From Thermodesulfobacteriota bacterium (GTDB lineage Bacteria > Desulfobacterota > Desulfobacteria > Desulfobacterales > C00003060): a DNA stretch of 64,000 nt. A program made the position numbers. Location of the stretch: the NCBI GenBank assembly GCA_034189385.1, contig JAXHVD010000018.1, positions 1-64,000 on the forward strand. Direction: 5' to 3'. This document shows positions 3,001 through 24,000 of this stretch, piece after piece; position 1 is the stretch's first letter, and every line of letters starts with the position of its first letter.

Positions 3001-6000
3001 TCAGCTATCACACGTTCTTTTTCTTGGAGATCCTGCTTCAGGGCATCGTAATCTTGCTGGCAAACTGTCTTTTTGGCAGGACCGGGCCGCGCTGCCAGGC
3101 GGTCCAGGGCGCCTTCCTTTACCATACGCTGGATCCTTGCCAGGTCGCTCGAGTATAGACCCTCGCGGCGCAACACCTCTCCAACAGGGGTCTCTGATCT
3201 CTGGGTCTCAAGGAAGAGCTGATACTTTTTTTCAGCGGACAGATAACGGCGCTTCTTTTTTCCGGAAGGCGATGAATCTTCAACAGGCTGATTCTTGTCG
3301 GTCACACTCATGGTATCTTCCTTTCTCTGCTGCCTGCTGGGGAACTCCGGTCGCCCTATGGGCTCCCTCCGTTCCCCAGCCCAGCTCATCATACCATGTA
3401 GTGTAATTCAATCCCACTTTTGGGACACAAAATCGGAAACGGGGGGTTCCATATGGTGAAATCACTAGGAGATACTTTCGCAATGATGAGTTTCAAGCAG
3501 TGGTTACGGAGGTTAAAGGCGCCTTTAGCGCTCCCGAGTGCCTGAAGGAGCAATGGTCCTCTGATGGCATAACGGCAGCTGAGGTTGGCTGTTTTCAATA
3601 TCCCAAGGTCACTTCCCTTGTCGACAAAGCCCTAGACGAAAAAGACCCCTTAGTACAAAAGGCGCTTTTATGCAAAATAGATGCCCTGATCACGTGGCTC
3701 CAGCCTGGTACGTTTCTATTCCACAAGACAGCCATCGATGTAATGTCCAAACGTTTCAAGATTCATCCGCCCTTTTCTCTCACATACGAAGGAATTTATC
3801 GCCTCCGGTATGCCTCGTTGAATCCAGATTGAGTCTTGGCCCTAGTGTCGTAAACCATAGATAAGTGACATTAGTCACTGTGCAGTACCGACGCGTCGGG
3901 AATTGAGGGCGTTAGCCCGGGTTTTTATGATTCAGCCGAGGCAGCAGGGATGAGGGGCTCCGCATTGAAAGCACCATGGTGCCACCAATGTGGTGGATTC
4001 TACAACTATTGAGGTTAGTCGGCGAAAGACGCCGTGCCTATCAGATCACGTTGATGCATGACATCTTTTGAGGATGCTGATTCAGTCGAAACGCCTAGAT
4101 ATCAAAAGCGGTCTGAACATCCCAGAAAGCTCAATATTGTCTATCGATCTCTATTTTGAACACTTTGTAGATTTTGCCCGACTGTCCTCAATTCCCAAGA
4201 CTCTCTGAAGTGCGAGGTCTCCTCTGCATATATAAAGCGGTTGTTTGATCATGCCGATTGGCGATTATGCTATGCCATCGCTACCCTGCATTTCAAGGGG
4301 CCGAGTGTACATAATGCTATATGATCTAACATATTGACCCCACGAGCTATTACTAGATATACTTCCCCTATCCTCACGAAAGTTGGGCACCTCACCGGTA
4401 GAATCTGAACGACGCTTGGCCATACTGTGTCTTGGATCTGGGTGAAGCTGATCCATGCCCAGACCTTGACAAGTAGTTCTTCAGACGCCCTTCTAGGGTC
4501 ACATAGATCCCCCTGTCAATAATCCGCTTCCAGTCTCTATTGAAATCCGACGGATAGATTTCAATCAGATCATATTTGTTCTCCCGGTAAACAATCCGCT
4601 TGTACTCGTTGAGGCGTGCATTCTTCTCGTTTCCGTTCATACCAAGGTATTCGATGAGAATATGATAATCGTTGAGGCTGAAGTCAGGATACCAAATTCG
4701 CTGCTTCCCGCTGTCAACCACTAGCACTGGCCTTTCATAGGTGAAGTCTATTCCTCGGTCCTGTAAATAGGTCCCGATTCTTCTCTCGCCATCCGACTTG
4801 TAATTGTTCCAGAGCTTGTTCTGGTAGGCCGCCATCCTGGGGCCCTGAAGATCATAAAGCTATAAAAAACTTGTGGTTTTCATAGAGCACCTAAATGGTA
4901 CCAAAGATTTGGCGATCTGTGGTCGAAGTCCCCAAGTGCCGGACTAAGGCGATTGAACAGCCCGTCACCAACAAACCCAAATAAACCATAACTATTTGGC
5001 AGAACACGACATTTTAGCAACTGCAAAAAATATTTAAACCCCGTAAAAAATATATTGACAAGACACTTGAGGCAGAGTATGAAGGATGAATCGAGAATCC
5101 GGATTCGGCCTTCGAGCCTCTGCCTCATGGTCTGTTCTCGACAAACGACGGACAGCTTGAGATCTCAGGTAAAACCCAAGAATTGAGCACTATCGTTATC
5201 GATAGTGCTCAGGGGGGAAACTCATGGACTCCCAGATCCAGAGATTAGATAAGCTACCGTACCTATCGATATTTTCGTCTGAAATTGAGGTTATGGCCGG
5301 ACTTGCCGTTGAGTGTGGCCAAGTTGAGACCGGAGGCGAGACATATGCCCTATTGAGCCAAGCTGGATACCCAGTAATCATGCTGGTGACCCCCCCTGGT
5401 CCGAATGCTGTGCACGAGTGGGCGCACTTCCGACAAGACCTTGAATTCTTTCGGAAGGTAAATCCGTTGCTTGAAAACGATTTTGGCCTGCAATACTCCG
5501 GCAGTTGGCACTGCCATCATTATCTTGGTATCAGGGGTCCTTCGGACGGAGATGTTCGGAGCACACACTCCATAGCTTTAAGGAACGGATACCGCATACA
5601 GAGCCAGATAGTGCTGACCTTTGAAAACGGCTACCATGGGCCGCCGCTTTCCCGGGGAAGCGCACCGTTCCGCCAGGAGCCGGCTGCTGAGACAGACAAC
5701 AGAGCTGTTAAGCAAAACACTTTTGTACGTCTAGTCAAAAGACGGCCTCTCCCTCCTGCCCCCAATGCATACGACCCTGCAGCCGTGCAGATCCACGCCT
5801 TTCTATATTTAAATGCCGCCAAAGGCAAACCCATGCGGTGCCCAATTCGAGTAATCCCTGGTATGAGCCCTTTCAGGGAGGCCATTGTAAAAACGTTCCC
5901 AGAATTACCTGAACTGGCTAAGGAAAAGTCATTTCCCATGTCGCGCATTGTACTGGACCACTTCCGGCAGGACGGGTTGGTGGGCACCCCCTCCGAGTTG

Positions 6001-21000: not shown

Positions 21001-24000
21001 GAGGAATTCAGCTGGCTTCATTCAGAACTGTTTCTGAAACAACTTGGTAGTGCAAGCCACCGAATAGGATTTGAGATACTGGGTAACGTCCAGGGAATCC
21101 GGCTTCAGTTTCTAGTGCATCACAGAGACCTGCCCATCCTGGAAACGGCTTTCCGCGGGCACTTTGAGCGGTGCGAACTATCGGCTCCATCAGCTGTCCA
21201 CTCTGCGGGCATCACTGGAGAGCGCGGCGATGAAATCACATTCCTGGATTGCTATCCACCCCCTCCATATTCGCACCTCTTAACCCGTCCGGATGAGCTC
21301 AAGATTACAACGTATCAATCCCTGGTGGTGGCGCTGATGGGTATCGAACCCCCGGCCACGGGCTTCTACCAGGCACTTTTCCAGCCCGTCAACGCCCGCC
21401 ATTGCTGGCACCGTAACGTCAGGGTGCTGCTGGATATCGAGTATAACCTCAAACTAATCAGCGGCGTACAGCTACCCCAAAGGTACCTCCAGCAAGCCCC
21501 TTCCGGAGATTTGCACCACATGGCCCGGGAGCTGGAAACCAAGGCCCACAACGACAAGCCTCTCTACGCCCTGGCTCTGCGCATAGGGGTGGCATCGCCA
21601 GGCAAGGACGGCTCCGACCATGTCAAGGTTCTTGCCACATTCCTTAACCTTTTTCAGCACGGCGGCAGGCCGCTCAAGTACGTGACCGACAAAGACTACA
21701 GCGCAGTGCTTTCTCGGGACACGATTACGGAGATGTTCACCATTGGCGCCACCTATCGTCCAGGGTTCCTGGTCAACTCCGCAGAACTGACAGGGCCGGT
21801 GCACATCCCACCAGCGGAGATTTTAGAGTATCATAACCCGCCACTGCCAGTCCTTGAAACACTGCCTGTGCGAAATGCCAACCTCCATTCCGGGACTCCA
21901 ATAGGGACATGCGTGTATGCCGGTATTGAACAACCTGTCTGCATACCTCTTGATGTCCGCTCCAGGTCCACACACATTATCGGTAAACCCGGAACCACCA
22001 AGTCCACAACAATGGCCAGGATGGTGCTCGACGATATCGACAAAGGAATAGGTGTGGCGGTACTCGATCCCCACGGCGATTTGGTTGAGGCGCTTCTCTG
22101 CTTGATAAAGGAGAAGCACGTTGAAAGAACGATATACTTTGATCCTGGAGACCCTAATCATGTGCCGATATGGAATCCGCTGAAAAAGAGCGCCGGCCAG
22201 GATTTGAGTCGAACCGCAGACGATCTGGTGGCGGCCATCAAAAGCGTTGTTACGGGCTGGGGAGATCGTATGGAGCACCTGCTCAGACACGGCCTCTATG
22301 CGTTGCTTCAGCTGTCCGACAGCACGCTGCTTGACCTATCCAACCTACTTCGTCGCAAGACCGACGAGAGCGAGCGCCTGCGAAAAGAGATTCTCGATGT
22401 GGTTGATAACCAGACTGCTTACCTGTTCTGGAAGAACGATTTTAACCGTTATTCCAATGAGGCTTTGGATCCTCCCAAGCATAAGCTGAGCAAGCTTCTT
22501 GTCGCCGGCACAGTGTCGCTCATGCTCTCTCAGCCCGAGAGCCTGATCGACTTCCGCCAGGCCATGGACGAAGGGAAGGTTCTCCTCGTCAATCTTGCCA
22601 GGATTGGTTCCGAAGTACGAGAAATACTTGGATGTTTCATGCTCTCGCAATTCCACCTTATGGCTTTAGGCCGGAGCGACACTTCTGCTGCCAACCGCAG
22701 GCAGTTTCACATCTATGCCGATGAGGCTCACCGATTCATCACGGAAGCGCTGGAAGACCTCATCGCTGAGACAAGAAAGTTTGGCGTAAGCCTCACGCTT
22801 GCCCATCACTATCTGAGGCAATTCGCCGCCAGGCAGATTGACGCCCTGTCGAGCACAGCAGCTACCATTATTATGAATGTGGATTCAAATGACGCACGGC
22901 ACTTGACCAAAGACCTGCAAAATCTCGTTCACCGTGATGACTTAATCACGTTGGAGGTAGGAGAGGCAATAGCACGAATCGGCACAGATATTATCAGGTT
23001 TAAGACTCACGGTCCCTTGCAGATTCCCGAGCGCAACTTCAAAGCTGCAATCATCAAGCGCTCTCAAGATCTTTATTATAAGCCGGTGCACGCCGTGCAA
23101 AGCGCCATACGGCAACAGGACAATCGCTGGAACAGGACATTCTCACCGCTTACAGCCGCCAAAACCGGGGATGTCGAGGAGTTTTTCTATGATGAATTCT
23201 GATCACGCCAAGGCGCTCAAGAAGGTTGTTAATGTAATTTTTGAGCTTCTTACGGAGGAGCGGATCTCCAGTGAAATAGATGAGCCCATCGAGCTGGCCG
23301 CTCAGAGTTTTCGCTTCAAAGCCCCGAAGCGTATTTCCCATCCGGTCTTCAACAGGGTAATTGCCGGATTTGTCCGCCACATCTACGAAAAAGGGATTCG
23401 CCTACGACGGTATCTTTCTGAAAAAGAGGCTCTGGGAGAAGCCATTTTTCTCGTTCAACATGTCTCAAACCTTGATCAGGCAGCGGATTACGAGACAAAT
23501 TTGGTCAATGTGACGAACAAGAAGCTGGAAGGCCTTGAGCTGGTTCTGTCAGAGCTGGCAGAGACGATAAAGGCCTTGGAAAGGCAAAAGTATATTGAAT
23601 GGGTCTTCGCCTACCACGTTGATCAACTGGACTGGAAGACACGCTGCTTTATCGTCGAGACCTATTTTGAGGAAAACAAAGCAATCCTTCCCCCTCAACT
23701 GCTGGACTTGGATCCTGCCCAACTTGCCTTGCACTGGCGCGACCTGATCATTAACCACCTGTCCACAGATCGGCTCGTCAAACAGGTCCTTGGTTCTGAT
23801 GGGCCCATTCGATTCGACTGAAACACCCTGCCCATTTCATCCGCAAACAGGGGAAAAGCCCCGAACCCAATTTTCTGGAGGTTCGGGACTTAGCCCAGCG
23901 GATGAGAAGATGAGCACATCAGCCAAAAACGAAAGAACAACAGAGGAAAAGGTTGCGCTTTTCAGGTCATACTTTTCCGGGCAGACCGACTTTTACGGGA

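Follow-up and report, generated by a model that had tools for sequence, protein, structure and literature searches.

A conserved gene block linked to a primase and an integrase on mobile islands, a candidate backbone module of tRNA-integrating elements

The window analysed here, a 64,000-nt stretch from a Thermodesulfobacteriota bacterium, holds a block of about 17 conserved genes for soluble enzymes and regulators, which sits on large mobile islands in the company of a primase and an integrase (Table 1). We favour, with about as much belief as doubt, a reading in which the block serves an integrative element as its conserved backbone module and comprises a sensor (kinase and WD40 protein), a switch of Lon-like protease, anti-sigma and sigma that resembles CalpL-T-S, a primase and a pair of HerA-type ATPases. 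The 16 ORFs that the genome-wide survey's note had placed at 5224-23821, all on the plus strand, were recovered there, and the domain matches that it quoted were reproduced (Table 1; mad8 at 9.1e-17 and 4.8e-9, Lon_C at 0.0034). Its collinear sets in other lineages were borne out by 35 loci from species genomes, which according to the record titles belong to Desulfobacterota, Planctomycetota, Bacteroidales, Victivallales/Lentisphaerae, Nitrospiraceae and Gammaproteobacteria, and its picture of a conserved, horizontally moving multi-gene unit that corresponds to no named system is supported. Searches of 24 genomes of the same genus and 16 of the same order yielded no full-length orthologue of ATPase1, and by this sequence comparison the block is strain-specific within its genus. 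Several diverged copies can share one genome (three in G008, two in Desulfocarbo).

Table 1. Positions of the block genes and neighbouring features in the window
Feature	Position	Strand	Evidence or remark
Perfect 11+4+11 palindrome, possible operator	5185..5210	.	13 nt 5' of JAB start
JAB/JAMM peptidase (res. ~10-245) with UEV/UBC/RWD-like domain (res. ~252-363)	5224..6444	+	PADLOC JAB 6.4e-7
E2-like conjugating enzyme	6432..6899	+	PADLOC E2 0.0032
E1 N-terminal segment ('57-aa protein')	6878..7069	+	same frame as E1
E1-like adenylating enzyme, ThiF/MoeB type, single adenylation domain	7088..8338	+	ThiF 7.9e-36; PADLOC E1-E2 2.4e-33
ATPase1, HerA/FtsK superfamily, ~400-aa conserved N-domain	8372..11143	+	mad8 9.1e-17
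Coiled-coil protein 1	11150..11674	+	conserved in most loci after ATPase1
Coiled-coil protein 2	11562..12293	+	relatives align from residue ~43-65 on
WD40 beta-propeller, helical/TPR-like C-half	12277..14211	+	start uncertain; ORF opens at 12088
Zn-ribbon Ser/Thr kinase with TPR	14211..15848	+	Pkinase 1.3e-36; TPR matches
Sigma-70-family-like protein (candidate)	15845..17071	+	AF2 fold
Partner of sigma-like protein, anti-sigma-like N-terminal helices and beta-rich C-domain (predicted)	17061..17777	+	complex prediction
Lon-like S16 Ser-Lys protease without AAA+, fused to helical domain (res. ~365-555; Lon-C)	17785..19452	+	LonB 3e-5
Helical paralogue Ha, most conserved protein of the block	19474..20055	+	hhalign 99.9% to Lon-C
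Helical paralogue Hb	20070..20648	+	hhalign 98.6% to Lon-C
ATPase2, HerA/TrwB-like, ~380-aa N-domain	20743..23202	+	TrwB_AAD_bind 1.1e-7; DUF87 1.7e-6
Helical paralogue Hc ('210-aa protein')	23171..23821	+	hhalign 99.8% to Lon-C, 99.6% to Ha
AEP primase-polymerase, 17th conserved gene	23790..24971	+	PF22548 AEP-TOTE 9.2e-36
Excisionase/AlpA-type HTH	25015..25305	+	HTH_17 3.2e-8; TIGR01764 excise 1.2e-5
Tyrosine integrase	25374..26756	+	Arm-DNA-bind_2 2.8e-16; Phage_integrase 3.4e-11; phrog_1 2.5e-46
tRNA-Arg(ACG), presumed integration target, 3' end toward integrase	26842..26917	-	ARAGORN

The block had been described as a JAB-E2-E1 cassette; its conservation stands, but the conjugation trio is optional, being present in 15 loci, absent from 11 and undecidable in 9, so that 11 of the 26 decidable loci lack all three genes, and the ATPases and the protease are retained in loci without them. 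Catalytic motifs are intact in the encoded proteins. In the JAB protein E35, H96, H98, S107 and D110 are invariant (11 sequences), and structure comparison of its AF2 model (pLDDT 72.7) returned an Rpn11 homologue at Z 15.7 and Cap3 at Z 14.3; for the C-terminal domain it gave the Tsg101 UEV (Z 7.2), a BubB chain (Z 6.9) and Ubc9 (Z 6.3). Judged from this model, the C terminus carries a UEV/E2-like domain, within which none of the Cys residues is invariant in the 11 sequences. The E2 displays an invariant C106, H93/T94/N97 in at least 90% of the alignment (n=14) and a YP..P..LYV motif. Invariant in the E1 are G139/S140/G142, D161, D163, R172, K184, C274/C277 and C393/C396, with D231 and C243 in at least 90%. 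The '57-aa protein', previously listed as a gene of its own, is instead the E1 N terminus cut off by a single in-frame TAA at 7067-7069; of the 13 relatives that were aligned, roughly half read through from the segment into E1 as a single ORF, among them L009, L030 and L005. As reported before, no Ubl and no Gly-Gly terminus were found among the cassette proteins; in 11 of 15 Hb sequences the tail ends in G-R followed by 0-3 further residues. Upstream of JAB, the palindrome is matched once in the window when up to 3 mismatches are allowed and never in 100 shuffles, and is possibly an operator.

ATPase1 also matches CedD (2.1e-16) and HerA in the PDB (3.1e-7), and displays conserved Walker A (G412..K418-T419) and Walker B (E643-E644) motifs. 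The earlier count of 119 matches was confirmed, as was the observation that their names are generic at best. Its nearest solved relatives are HerA proteins under generic names, which we take to be HerA proteins of defence systems. ATPase2, with Walker A K420-S421 and Walker B D660-E661, matches phrog_5156 (2.7e-35), a phage family to which no function is assigned. Coiled-coil protein 1 gave weak coiled-coil-type matches only; coiled-coil protein 2, missing or diverged in several JAB-less loci, probably starts later in the sequence, at 11619 or 11757. The family profile of the next protein matched WD40 proteins of the PDB at 2.9e-15 and 2.4e-14 over its N-terminal ~300 positions. In the kinase K88, D190, N195 and D207 are conserved, and JAB-less loci encode 900-1200-aa kinase variants with double Zn ribbons and TPR/Sel1 repeats.

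The survey's note had counted three unknowns here, one of them bearing a Lon domain; the Lon domain is confirmed, and on modelling grounds the other two now look like a sigma factor and its anti-sigma partner. In the AF2 model of the former (pLDDT 77.9), whose sigma-like fold is a prediction, sigma factors fill about 20 of the top 50 rows of a wide structure comparison, the best being ShbA (Z 7.2, rmsd 2.6, 90 residues aligned, model 35-185), and residues 267-380 match sigma-4 of SigL at Z 4.7, values that lie within the range of chance helical matches. No Pfam sigma match was obtained for this protein, and Foldseek returned nothing significant. The partner gene overlaps it by 11 nt, and binding of the two products is predicted with an ipSAE, the model's own confidence, of 0.75 (three runs 0.74-0.76; best of three controls 0.00), the mark applied being one that 116 of 157 solved complexes and 2 of 215 mismatched pairs reach, counts that hold only roughly since our own alignments were used. 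At least 61% of contacts are shared among the runs, with a partner pLDDT of at least 76; partner residues 4-88 would touch regions 29-184 and 347-389, an interface covering the sigma-2-like and sigma-4-like parts. The order sigma-like protein, partner, Lon is kept in every locus holding all three. For the protease, the family profile matches archaeal LonB protease domains (5e-9) and 1rr9 (0.0015) in the PDB, and the Ser and Lys previously called invariant are S99 and K143, present in 16 of 16 sequences. The paralogy claimed between its C-terminal domain and both 193-aa proteins, Ha and Hb, holds; the set, given as three, has four members with the addition of Hc. Ha is 46-66% identical across phyla, and its profile collects 1261 cluster representatives at E<=1e-3, none of its relatives being found in the PDB or Pfam.

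The integrase, excisionase-like HTH and tRNA-Arg reported near the cassette are present. The claim that flanking genes match in no other locus did not survive, since the AEP gene, which overlaps Hc by 32 nt in the window, lies directly 3' of it in 12 of 13 other loci (the exception being L026), and a 398-aa gene 5' of JAB recurs in L009, L010, L008, L007, C27 and G002, the sequence 5' of JAB otherwise differing between loci. AEP residues D117-x-D119 and H151 are conserved. Where the sequence extends 3 kb or more past AEP, as it does in seven loci, a tyrosine recombinase is encoded within 4 kb in six, and in five of these six a tRNA gene lies no more than 300 nt away (for Arg, Asp, Thr, Lys and Lys). 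Integrases of different loci gave no mutual tblastn match at 1e-4, except one weak one; the tRNA differs from locus to locus, and by sequence the integrases are not orthologous. All six Planctomycetota-type loci carry a gene for a class II ribonucleotide reductase between AEP and integrase. Element ends were fixed in one genome, the complete chromosome G002, in which a ~65-nt 3' fragment of tRNA-Thr is exactly repeated at 4243408, where there is no tRNA gene, and in the tRNA gene at 4352857; these att repeats bound a 109-kb island with the block as its integrase-proximal 21 kb. No second att copy was found in positions 1-6500 of the window. Across the loci, the block is bordered on its other side by cargo that varies and is often of a defence-like kind. 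The remainder of the G002 island is likewise variable and for the most part defence-like (DUF499/DUF1156, AbiEii, caspase-FGE-sulfatase genes, PD-(D/E)XK+HerA), and Cdc6/Orc-like, Replic_Relax, SNF2 and ImuB-DnaE2-LexA genes lie there too. Desulfocarbo and G002 share the SNF2 helicase at 61% identity, and contig C27 of the window's own genome yields matches of 57% for SNF2, 70% for the Cdc6-like gene and 41% for the 398-aa gene; the window's element probably continues there. An AEP neighbour and, nearly always, a tyrosine integrase beside a tRNA gene, combined with changing integrases and tRNAs and variable cargo opposite, form the pattern of an element backbone and not of cargo.

The survey's note had proposed a self-contained anti-phage or anti-plasmid defence system merely riding on integrative islands. 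In such a system kinase and WD40 protein would sense infection, the DNA of the invader would be the target of HerA-type ATPases and AEP, and the response, primed by E1/E2/JAB as in CBASS, would be executed by the Lon-like protease or through the sigma output. We consider this possible though doubtful. It agrees with PADLOC matches to JAB, E2, E1-E2, mad6, mad8, HerA and PD-T4-6 kinases, all of them, however, generic domains; with the Pfam family of the AEP, named for a 'TOTE conflict system', and the match to a CRISPR-associated PrimPol (4.8e-33); with the presumed defence origin of the HerA kin of ATPase1; with the defence-type genes filling the G002 island; and with the strain-specific distribution. 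A Lon/anti-sigma/sigma logic is moreover known from a CRISPR-linked defence effector. Against it, no nuclease, methyltransferase, NADase, pore or other recognised effector was found among the 19 proteins scanned, the fixed place beside AEP and integrase would be unusual for cargo, genomes may hold two or three diverged copies, the ribonucleotide reductase lies within the unit, and phage records are nearly devoid of the block (one weak match among 50,697). Service to an element was the alternative which that note had itself named. The defence-rich island, the conflict-named AEP family and the HerA kin of ATPase1 fit defence equally well.

The near-empty phage search also speaks against a block that packages or transfers the DNA of a satellite-like or virus-like element, an account we find unlikely, in which the FtsK/HerA ATPases would pump element DNA, a late programme would depend on the sigma-like protein, and the helical paralogues would be structural or scaffold proteins matured by the Lon-like protease. 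The layout of int, AlpA-type HTH and primase, which we take to resemble that of phage satellites, would suit it, as would the ribonucleotide reductase and SNF2 helicase travelling with the unit, the phrog_5156 match and distant ATPase1 homologues in five IMG/VR contigs, two of them with a second FtsK-like ATPase 3'. Those contigs hold no other cassette family, though, a 109-kb island exceeds most satellite packaging, and domain and phage-family searches recognised no capsid, portal, terminase, tail or membrane component among the cassette proteins. A ubiquitin-proteasome-like machine, in which E1/E2 would tag, JAB-UEV detag at the ring ATPase and the Lon-like domain degrade, appears very improbable to us: E1, E2, Rpn11-like JAB, ring ATPases and Lon-type protease do share one operon, but the conjugation genes are dispensable while ATPases and protease stay, a Ubl is missing from the matches and the ATPases belong to the HerA/FtsK superfamily, for which we know of no protein unfolding.

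In the backbone reading, the block would be the conserved backbone of a family of large tRNA-integrating genomic elements rather than free-standing cargo. Against this reading, the cassette proteins gave no recognised relaxase, T4SS, capsid or membrane component in domain and phage-family searches, and neither a cleavage site nor a promoter or regulon was identified. We infer every activity named below, along with the order of events, what protease and E1 act on and the output of the switch. A WD40-TPR scaffold and the Zn-ribbon kinase with its TPR would form the sensor part; by analogy with CalpL-CalpT-CalpS, an input would activate the Lon-type protease, the anti-sigma-like product of the gene next to the sigma-like one would be cut, and the divergent sigma-70-like protein that it had held would redirect RNA polymerase. 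Ha, Hb and Hc, free paralogues of the helical domain of the protease, would be regulators, adaptors or decoys. As an optional add-on likened to Cap2/Cap3 of type II CBASS, the separate E1, separate E2 and JAB-UEV peptidase may reversibly join the C terminus of a cassette protein to targets and so tune the response. The two HerA/FtsK-type ring ATPases with their large private N-domains, the two coiled-coil proteins and the AEP primase-polymerase would make up a DNA-handling set that would replicate, resolve or move the DNA of the element, or act on competing DNA.

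The cassette at 5224 to 23821 was confirmed as 16 ORFs on the + strand, tightly packed with many stop/start overlaps, and the domain matches listed in the genome-wide survey's note were reproduced with PADLOC (JAB 6.4e-7, E2 0.0032, E1-E2 2.4e-33, mad8 9.1e-17 and 4.8e-9) and Pfam (ThiF 7.9e-36, Pkinase 1.3e-36, Lon_C 0.0034). The proposed beta-propeller is borne out by its family profile, which aligns to WD40 proteins at 2.9e-15, and ATPase1, the 923-aa HerA-type ATPase, has the 119 homologues reported, with generic names at most; 116 of these fall at E-value <= 1e-122, after which the values drop to 3e-36. 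Alignment revealed an intact JAMM site in JAB (E35, H96, H98, S107 and D110 invariant), while C106 is conserved in E2, as are the glycine loop, D161/D163, R172, K184, two CxxC pairs and C243 in E1. Walker A and B are intact and conserved in both ATPases, and so are K88, D190, N195 and D207 of the kinase and the DxD and His of the AEP (primase-polymerase) encoded just downstream. One gene of the earlier list was withdrawn: the '57-aa protein' is rather the N-terminus of E1, in the same frame and cut off by one TAA at 7067-7069. This segment and E1 form a single uninterrupted ORF in about half of 13 aligned relatives and, since split forms recur at two other loci (L002 and L027), the split is probably tolerated.

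Coordinates of selected genes of the block in the window
Feature	Position	Strand	Remark
E2	6432-6899	+	ORF separate from E1
E1	7088-8338	+	ORF separate from E2
g10	15845-17071	+	sigma-70-like by predicted fold
g11	17061-17777	+	predicted anti-sigma-like partner
AEP	23790-24971		primase-polymerase

A one-genome-per-species scan with the ATPase1 alignment as query returned 35 loci; a single-sequence genome scan gave no match. By tblastn and family HMMs the recurrent order is ATPase1, cc1, (cc2), WD40, kinase, g10, g11, Lon, Ha, Hb, ATPase2, Hc, where cc1 and cc2 are coiled-coil proteins and Ha, Hb and Hc are free paralogues of the C-terminal domain of the Lon-like protease (Lon-C). The JAB-E2-E1 conjugation module lies upstream of ATPase1 in 15 loci and is absent from 11 that include upstream sequence, the other 9 beginning too near for a call either way. 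Loci without JAB often have the second half in inverted orientation, and their kinase, enlarged to 900-1200 aa, carries double zinc ribbons together with TPR/Sel1 repeats. No full-length ATPase1 orthologue was found in 24 same-genus and 16 same-order genomes, and the block is sporadic within the host's lineage. Phage records gave one weak match, for ATPase2, and plasmid records 93 weak matches confined to the ATPase domain, the best of which (Sulfitobacter) is a lone truncated T4CP-like gene; PHROGs yielded generic kinase, primase and integrase matches and phrog_5156, nothing more. Two IMG/VR contigs (L058 9788-18856 and L059 9338-18545) encode a distant ATPase1 homologue (HMM E 1e-119) and, about 2.7 kb downstream of it, an FtsK/SpoIIIE-like ATPase of 1130-1160 aa, with the other cassette families absent; in L059 the ATPase pair directly follows an integrase and an HTH gene. 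In a Desulfobacterales copy (L031), ATPase1, WD40 and kinase are in many frame pieces and g10 to ATPase2 are intact, which reflects either decay or long-read assembly errors.

What stays with the block on its downstream side is the AEP. In the window its gene and Hc share 32 nt, and an AEP is the gene after Hc in 12 of 13 further loci, from genomes G001-G008 and G010 (at two places in G005 and three in G008), L026 being the exception. The G001 locus (L049 2273-3749) has a spacer of about 1.5 kb between Hc and AEP, the only one of its kind observed and with stop codons in the frame tried, and in G004 (L050 707-2011) the AEP is followed by an additional ATPase2-like gene, truncated to 434 aa and with 44% identity. 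A tyrosine recombinase was found within 4 kb in six of the seven loci with at least 3 kb of sequence beyond the AEP, and five of these six have a tRNA gene within 300 nt, mostly a differing one, with housekeeping genes beyond. A class II ribonucleotide reductase lies between AEP and integrase in all six Planctomycetota-type loci. In the window, an 11-nt unit occurs three times in tandem at 26752-26790 (start-to-start spacing 11), past the integrase stop and before tRNA-Arg; the copies are possible arm-type sites for integrase binding. A 147-aa ORF a short way upstream of the block (4392-4835, - strand) has weak PHROG matches to homing/HNH endonuclease and resolvase (9e-5 to 3e-4) and no homologue in the other loci.

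The extent of the island could be read in G002, the only complete chromosome, where an integrase lies beside the tRNA gene and direct repeats of the tRNA 3' end bound the island. The 3' end of tRNA-Thr is repeated exactly, over about 65 nt with adjoining sequence, at 4233005, at 4243408 and in the tRNA gene at 4352857, and the first two copies are not tRNA genes. Given the exact repeats at 4243408 and 4352857, 109 kb apart, the block with AEP and integrase makes up ~21 kb at the right-hand, integrase-side end of an island of 109 kb that att sites bound. Its remaining 88 kb carry defence-type genes (DUF499/DUF1156, AAA_15 with DUF3226, AbiEii, PD-(D/E)XK with HerA, many caspase-FGE-sulfatase genes) and replication or maintenance genes (Cdc6/Orc-like, Replic_Relax, SNF2 helicases, ImuB-DnaE2-LexA, SLT). 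Among 61 scanned island ORFs of at least 150 aa there was no VirB4 or relaxase; Replic_Relax and SLT were present. Along G002:C1:4243400-4332200 (L065-L069) there are six or more caspase (Peptidase_C14) genes, of which four are fusions with an FGE-sulfatase domain, and several DUF4384 proteins. The third att copy (L063, G002:C1:4233005), 10.4 kb further left, has an extra ~45 nt in common with the 3' end of the integrase gene, which suggests that related elements stand in tandem at tRNA-Thr.

Several island genes recur elsewhere. Between Desulfocarbo and G002 the SNF2 helicase shares 61% identity, L004 and L014 also have Replic_Relax, and a 398-aa gene located upstream of JAB is found again in L009, L010, L008, L007, G002 and C27, a 28.9-kb contig of the window's own genome (G000; L070 and L071). 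C27 carries orthologues of the SNF2 helicase (57%), the Cdc6-like protein (70%), PD-(D/E)XK with HerA (34-41%) and the 398-aa gene (41%), so that the window's element appears larger than the window shows and C27 is, from this gene content, probably its missing left part. A search of window positions 1-6500 for a repeat of the 3' end of tRNA-Arg found none; the region is uninformative on this point because only 5.2 kb of contig precede JAB, starting in IS-rich repeats. Positions 1-4240 are repetitive, with a word depth 4-14 times that of the block, which makes the contig end a break of the assembly within repeats. One contig of X1 begins at 4245, and one X2 contig skips an IS element at 1830-3446 (rve-type transposase ORF 1873-2952) with a joint from 1829 to 3447. 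An att repeat was absent within 8 kb upstream of JAB in L005, L007 and L027, G003 has further exact att copies on another contig, and the search in G010 gave other tRNA-Lys-like sites only. No excision joint was seen in the contigs of four DNA sequencing sets from two studies.

Within the block, three consecutive genes resemble a regulatory switch. The g10 protein has 408 aa and an AF2 model of pLDDT 77.9. Foldseek with this model gave no match at E<=0.001; in a structural search against all representatives, sigma factors made up about 20 of the best 50 rows. The best sigma match was ShbA (Z 7.2, rmsd 2.6 over 90 residues, model 35-185), followed by SigB (6.7), pro-sigma-K (6.6), sigma-32 (6.2) and SigW (6.0), and SigK and AlgU gave whole-protein alignments over 35-380; there was also a sigma-4 match at 267-380. 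The model thus presents g10 as sigma-like by fold, with modest Z values that are insufficient alone; a conserved C-terminal HTH-like motif agrees with such a fold. No Pfam match to Sigma70_r2/r4 was obtained at E<=0.01, the resemblance being at the level of fold together with a weak ESM Atlas lead (0.87) to Sigma70_r4 clusters. The Atlas leads for g10 were all weak (0.87-0.88) and there was none for g11, and PDB profile searches with Ha, g10 and g11 returned nothing below E 0.1.

The g11 gene is invariably downstream of g10 and overlaps it by 11 nt. Complex prediction for the two proteins gave an ipSAE of 0.75 (runs 0.74-0.76), the best of three controls reaching 0.00; that mark is reached by 116 of 157 solved complexes versus 2 of 215 mismatched pairs, counts that are approximate here as our own alignments were supplied. 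Contact agreement between runs was at least 61% and g11 pLDDT at least 76. In the predicted complex, the conserved N-terminal helices of g11 (4-88) would contact g10 at two places, its sigma-2-like part (29-184) and its sigma-4-like part (347-389). Anti-sigma domains hold ECF sigma factors by gripping both their sigma-2 and sigma-4 parts. The next gene after g11 encodes the Lon-like protease, whose protease domain, proposed earlier from a fold model, is supported by the family profile (5e-9 to archaeal LonB protease domains, 0.0015 to 1rr9) and by an invariant S99 and K143 catalytic dyad; the Pfam scan found no AAA domain in this protein. Lon-C matches no Pfam family, its paralogue Ha has no PDB relative in a profile search, and the domain appears all-helical, judging from the survey's fold model and our reading of the sequence. 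Hc, the '210-aa protein' of the earlier list, is a fourth helical paralogue; every pairing of Lon-C, Ha, Hb and Hc scores 97.7-99.9% in hhalign. Conservation within the block is highest in Ha (46-66% identity), whose profile retrieves 1261 cluster representatives at E<=1e-3. These are mostly of about 193 aa, with some Lon fusions of 554-560 aa and some members of 376-380 aa whose extra N-terminal half has no Pfam domain.

In the conjugation module, the AF2 model of JAB (pLDDT 72.7) shows two domains. A structure search placed the JAMM domain near an archaeal Rpn11 homologue (Z 15.7), Cap3 (9ild_A, 14.3) and BubCD (11.4), and for the C-domain (252-363) it gave alignments with UEV, RWD and E2 folds (Tsg101 Z 7.2, FANCL 6.9, CBASS E2 6.4, Ubc9 6.3) and, with Z 6.9, with a chain of the BubCD-BubB-BubA entry that we take to be the E2, BubB. 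No cysteine of this domain is invariant in the alignment. With its UEV/RWD/E2-like fold the modelled C-domain is not the missing Ubl, and Pfam, PADLOC and NCBIfam scans of the cassette proteins found no beta-grasp Ubl. A conserved terminal Gly/Ala is found in no cassette family. In 11 of 15 sequences the Hb tail reads ...G-R followed by 0-3 residues, which makes Hb the nearest candidate for C-terminal conjugation; this is a lead only, because loci without the module have the same tail.

We compared the island with named systems. Actinomycete ICEs of the pSAM2, SLP1 and pMEA300 type integrate into tRNA genes and unite int, xis, a prim-pol-type replication protein and an FtsK/HerA-superfamily ATPase in a compact unit. 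The same elements (tRNA site, int, xis, prim-pol-type protein, FtsK/HerA ATPase) occur together here; however, the hosts are diderm phyla, the two ATPases have no membrane anchors and no FtsK_SpoIIIE Pfam match, 12 further signalling and proteolysis genes are present and the island reaches up to 109 kb. A conjugation or secretion apparatus was dropped as a candidate, as no convincing membrane helix was found in the cassette proteins; these gave no T4SS match either. To type II CBASS the likeness lies in the conjugation enzymes. E1 scores best against PADLOC E1-E2 models (2.4e-33), which we assign to Cap2, JAB has an intact JAMM site with Z 14.3 to Cap3, and the module, in which no Ubl was found, is optional to a core that also occurs without it. 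In contrast to the Cap2 E2-E1 fusion, E1 and E2 are unfused here and in 14 other loci, and JAB has an extra UEV-like domain. Among 19 proteins scanned with PADLOC, Pfam and NCBIfam there was no CD-NTase match, and PADLOC found no cyclic-nucleotide effector. According to PMC10097602, CBASS conjugates the C-terminal Gly/Ala of its cyclase, which is conserved only where Cap2 and Cap3 are present; no cassette family has such a terminus. The cassette shares only the conjugation enzymes with CBASS.

In the Bil and Bub operons as 10.1101/2024.11.21.623953 defines them, E1, E2 and a JAB peptidase also share one operon. The JAB model of the block resembles BubCD (Z 11.4). Both systems have a Ubl (BilA/BubA), which Pfam, PADLOC and NCBIfam scans did not find here; the module here also sits inside a 17-gene block. 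For Bub, the DUF6527 protease (BubE) has no match in the Pfam scan, the JAB-E1 and Ubl-E2 fusions are missing, with E2 and E1 unfused, and E2 C106 and E1 C243 are conserved, versus the oxyester chemistry reported. A parallel in gene logic is CalpL-CalpT-CalpS, a SAVED-Lon protease, anti-sigma and ECF-like sigma of type III CRISPR (10.1101/2024.05.08.593097). In the block, a Lon-type Ser-Lys protease domain that lacks AAA+ is joined to a second domain, and its gene stands beside those of a sigma-like protein and a predicted binding partner, three in a row. Unlike the SAVED domain of CalpL, the fused domain here appears helical and has three free paralogues, and the sigma-like g10 is a 408-aa protein with inserts. 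Among the 19 proteins PADLOC matched no Cas family other than PrimPol.

For MADS, PADLOC and NCBIfam gave matches to mad6 kinase (1.7e-43; 1.2e-27), mad8 ATPase (9.1e-17; 4.8e-9) and mad1 HTH. Membership was dropped: PMC13662399 defines MADS by an m6A methyltransferase and the ATPase-nuclease modules MAD3/4 and MAD7/8, and only the mad1, mad6 and mad8 models match here, with no methyltransferase or nuclease domain in Pfam. The AEP belongs to PF22548, named for TOTE conflict systems, and TPR proteins are present; of the TPR, OB, TBP and Effector parts named in PMC12458937, the OB/cold-shock and TBP domains were not detected by Pfam. Overlap with any named system is at most three components, and a limited literature search found no description of this gene combination. 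The island is integrative, and its proposed backbone operon combines known module types in an undescribed way.

Which role the block plays is a closer judgement. The backbone of an element stays with its integrase and the cargo varies. We rank first, as an evenly balanced call, that the block is a conserved module of an integrative element, because block and AEP stay fixed while integrases, tRNA targets and far flanks change, and because several diverged copies occur per genome. A defence system is the alternative to such a backbone. The domain vocabulary, the AEP family and the neighbouring genes all have a conflict-like character, a module that belongs to an element may be used against competitors as well, and no visible transfer, capsid or membrane function accounts for two ring ATPases; for these reasons we retain it, as the less probable of the two. 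If the block is an element module, the kinase/WD40 sensor would take an input and trigger the switch of Lon protease, anti-sigma and sigma, and the HerA-type ATPases and the primase would provide a DNA-handling output; E1/E2/JAB-UEV would act as an optional, Cap2/Cap3-like tuner.

We also put forward, tentatively, a wider proposal: an undescribed class of large integrative elements with their own eukaryote-like signalling cascade, in which a kinase, a WD40 scaffold and an optional Ubl-less E1-E2-JAB module would act on a non-CRISPR Lon/anti-sigma/sigma switch and, through it, on two novel HerA-type motors and a primase, the sensor domain of the Lon protein being the source of three free paralogues. 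Such a cascade might run an induction/replication programme or be a new immune system. If this is true, Lon/anti-sigma/sigma logic would be wider than thought, untied from cyclic-nucleotide signalling or CRISPR, and a general switch also of mobile elements. Ubl-less E1/E2/JAB conjugation would gain a third context after CBASS, with unfused and optional enzymes, and since they are optional the loci would offer a natural with/without comparison for finding modified targets. Desulfocarbo indianensis SCBM, a cultured host, has two copies of the block, which makes these questions testable at the bench. The elements would form a broad unexplored family of 20-100-kb islands in six or more bacterial lineages from sediments and waters, bringing with them an unexplored pair of HerA-type ATPases and the very conserved helical family.
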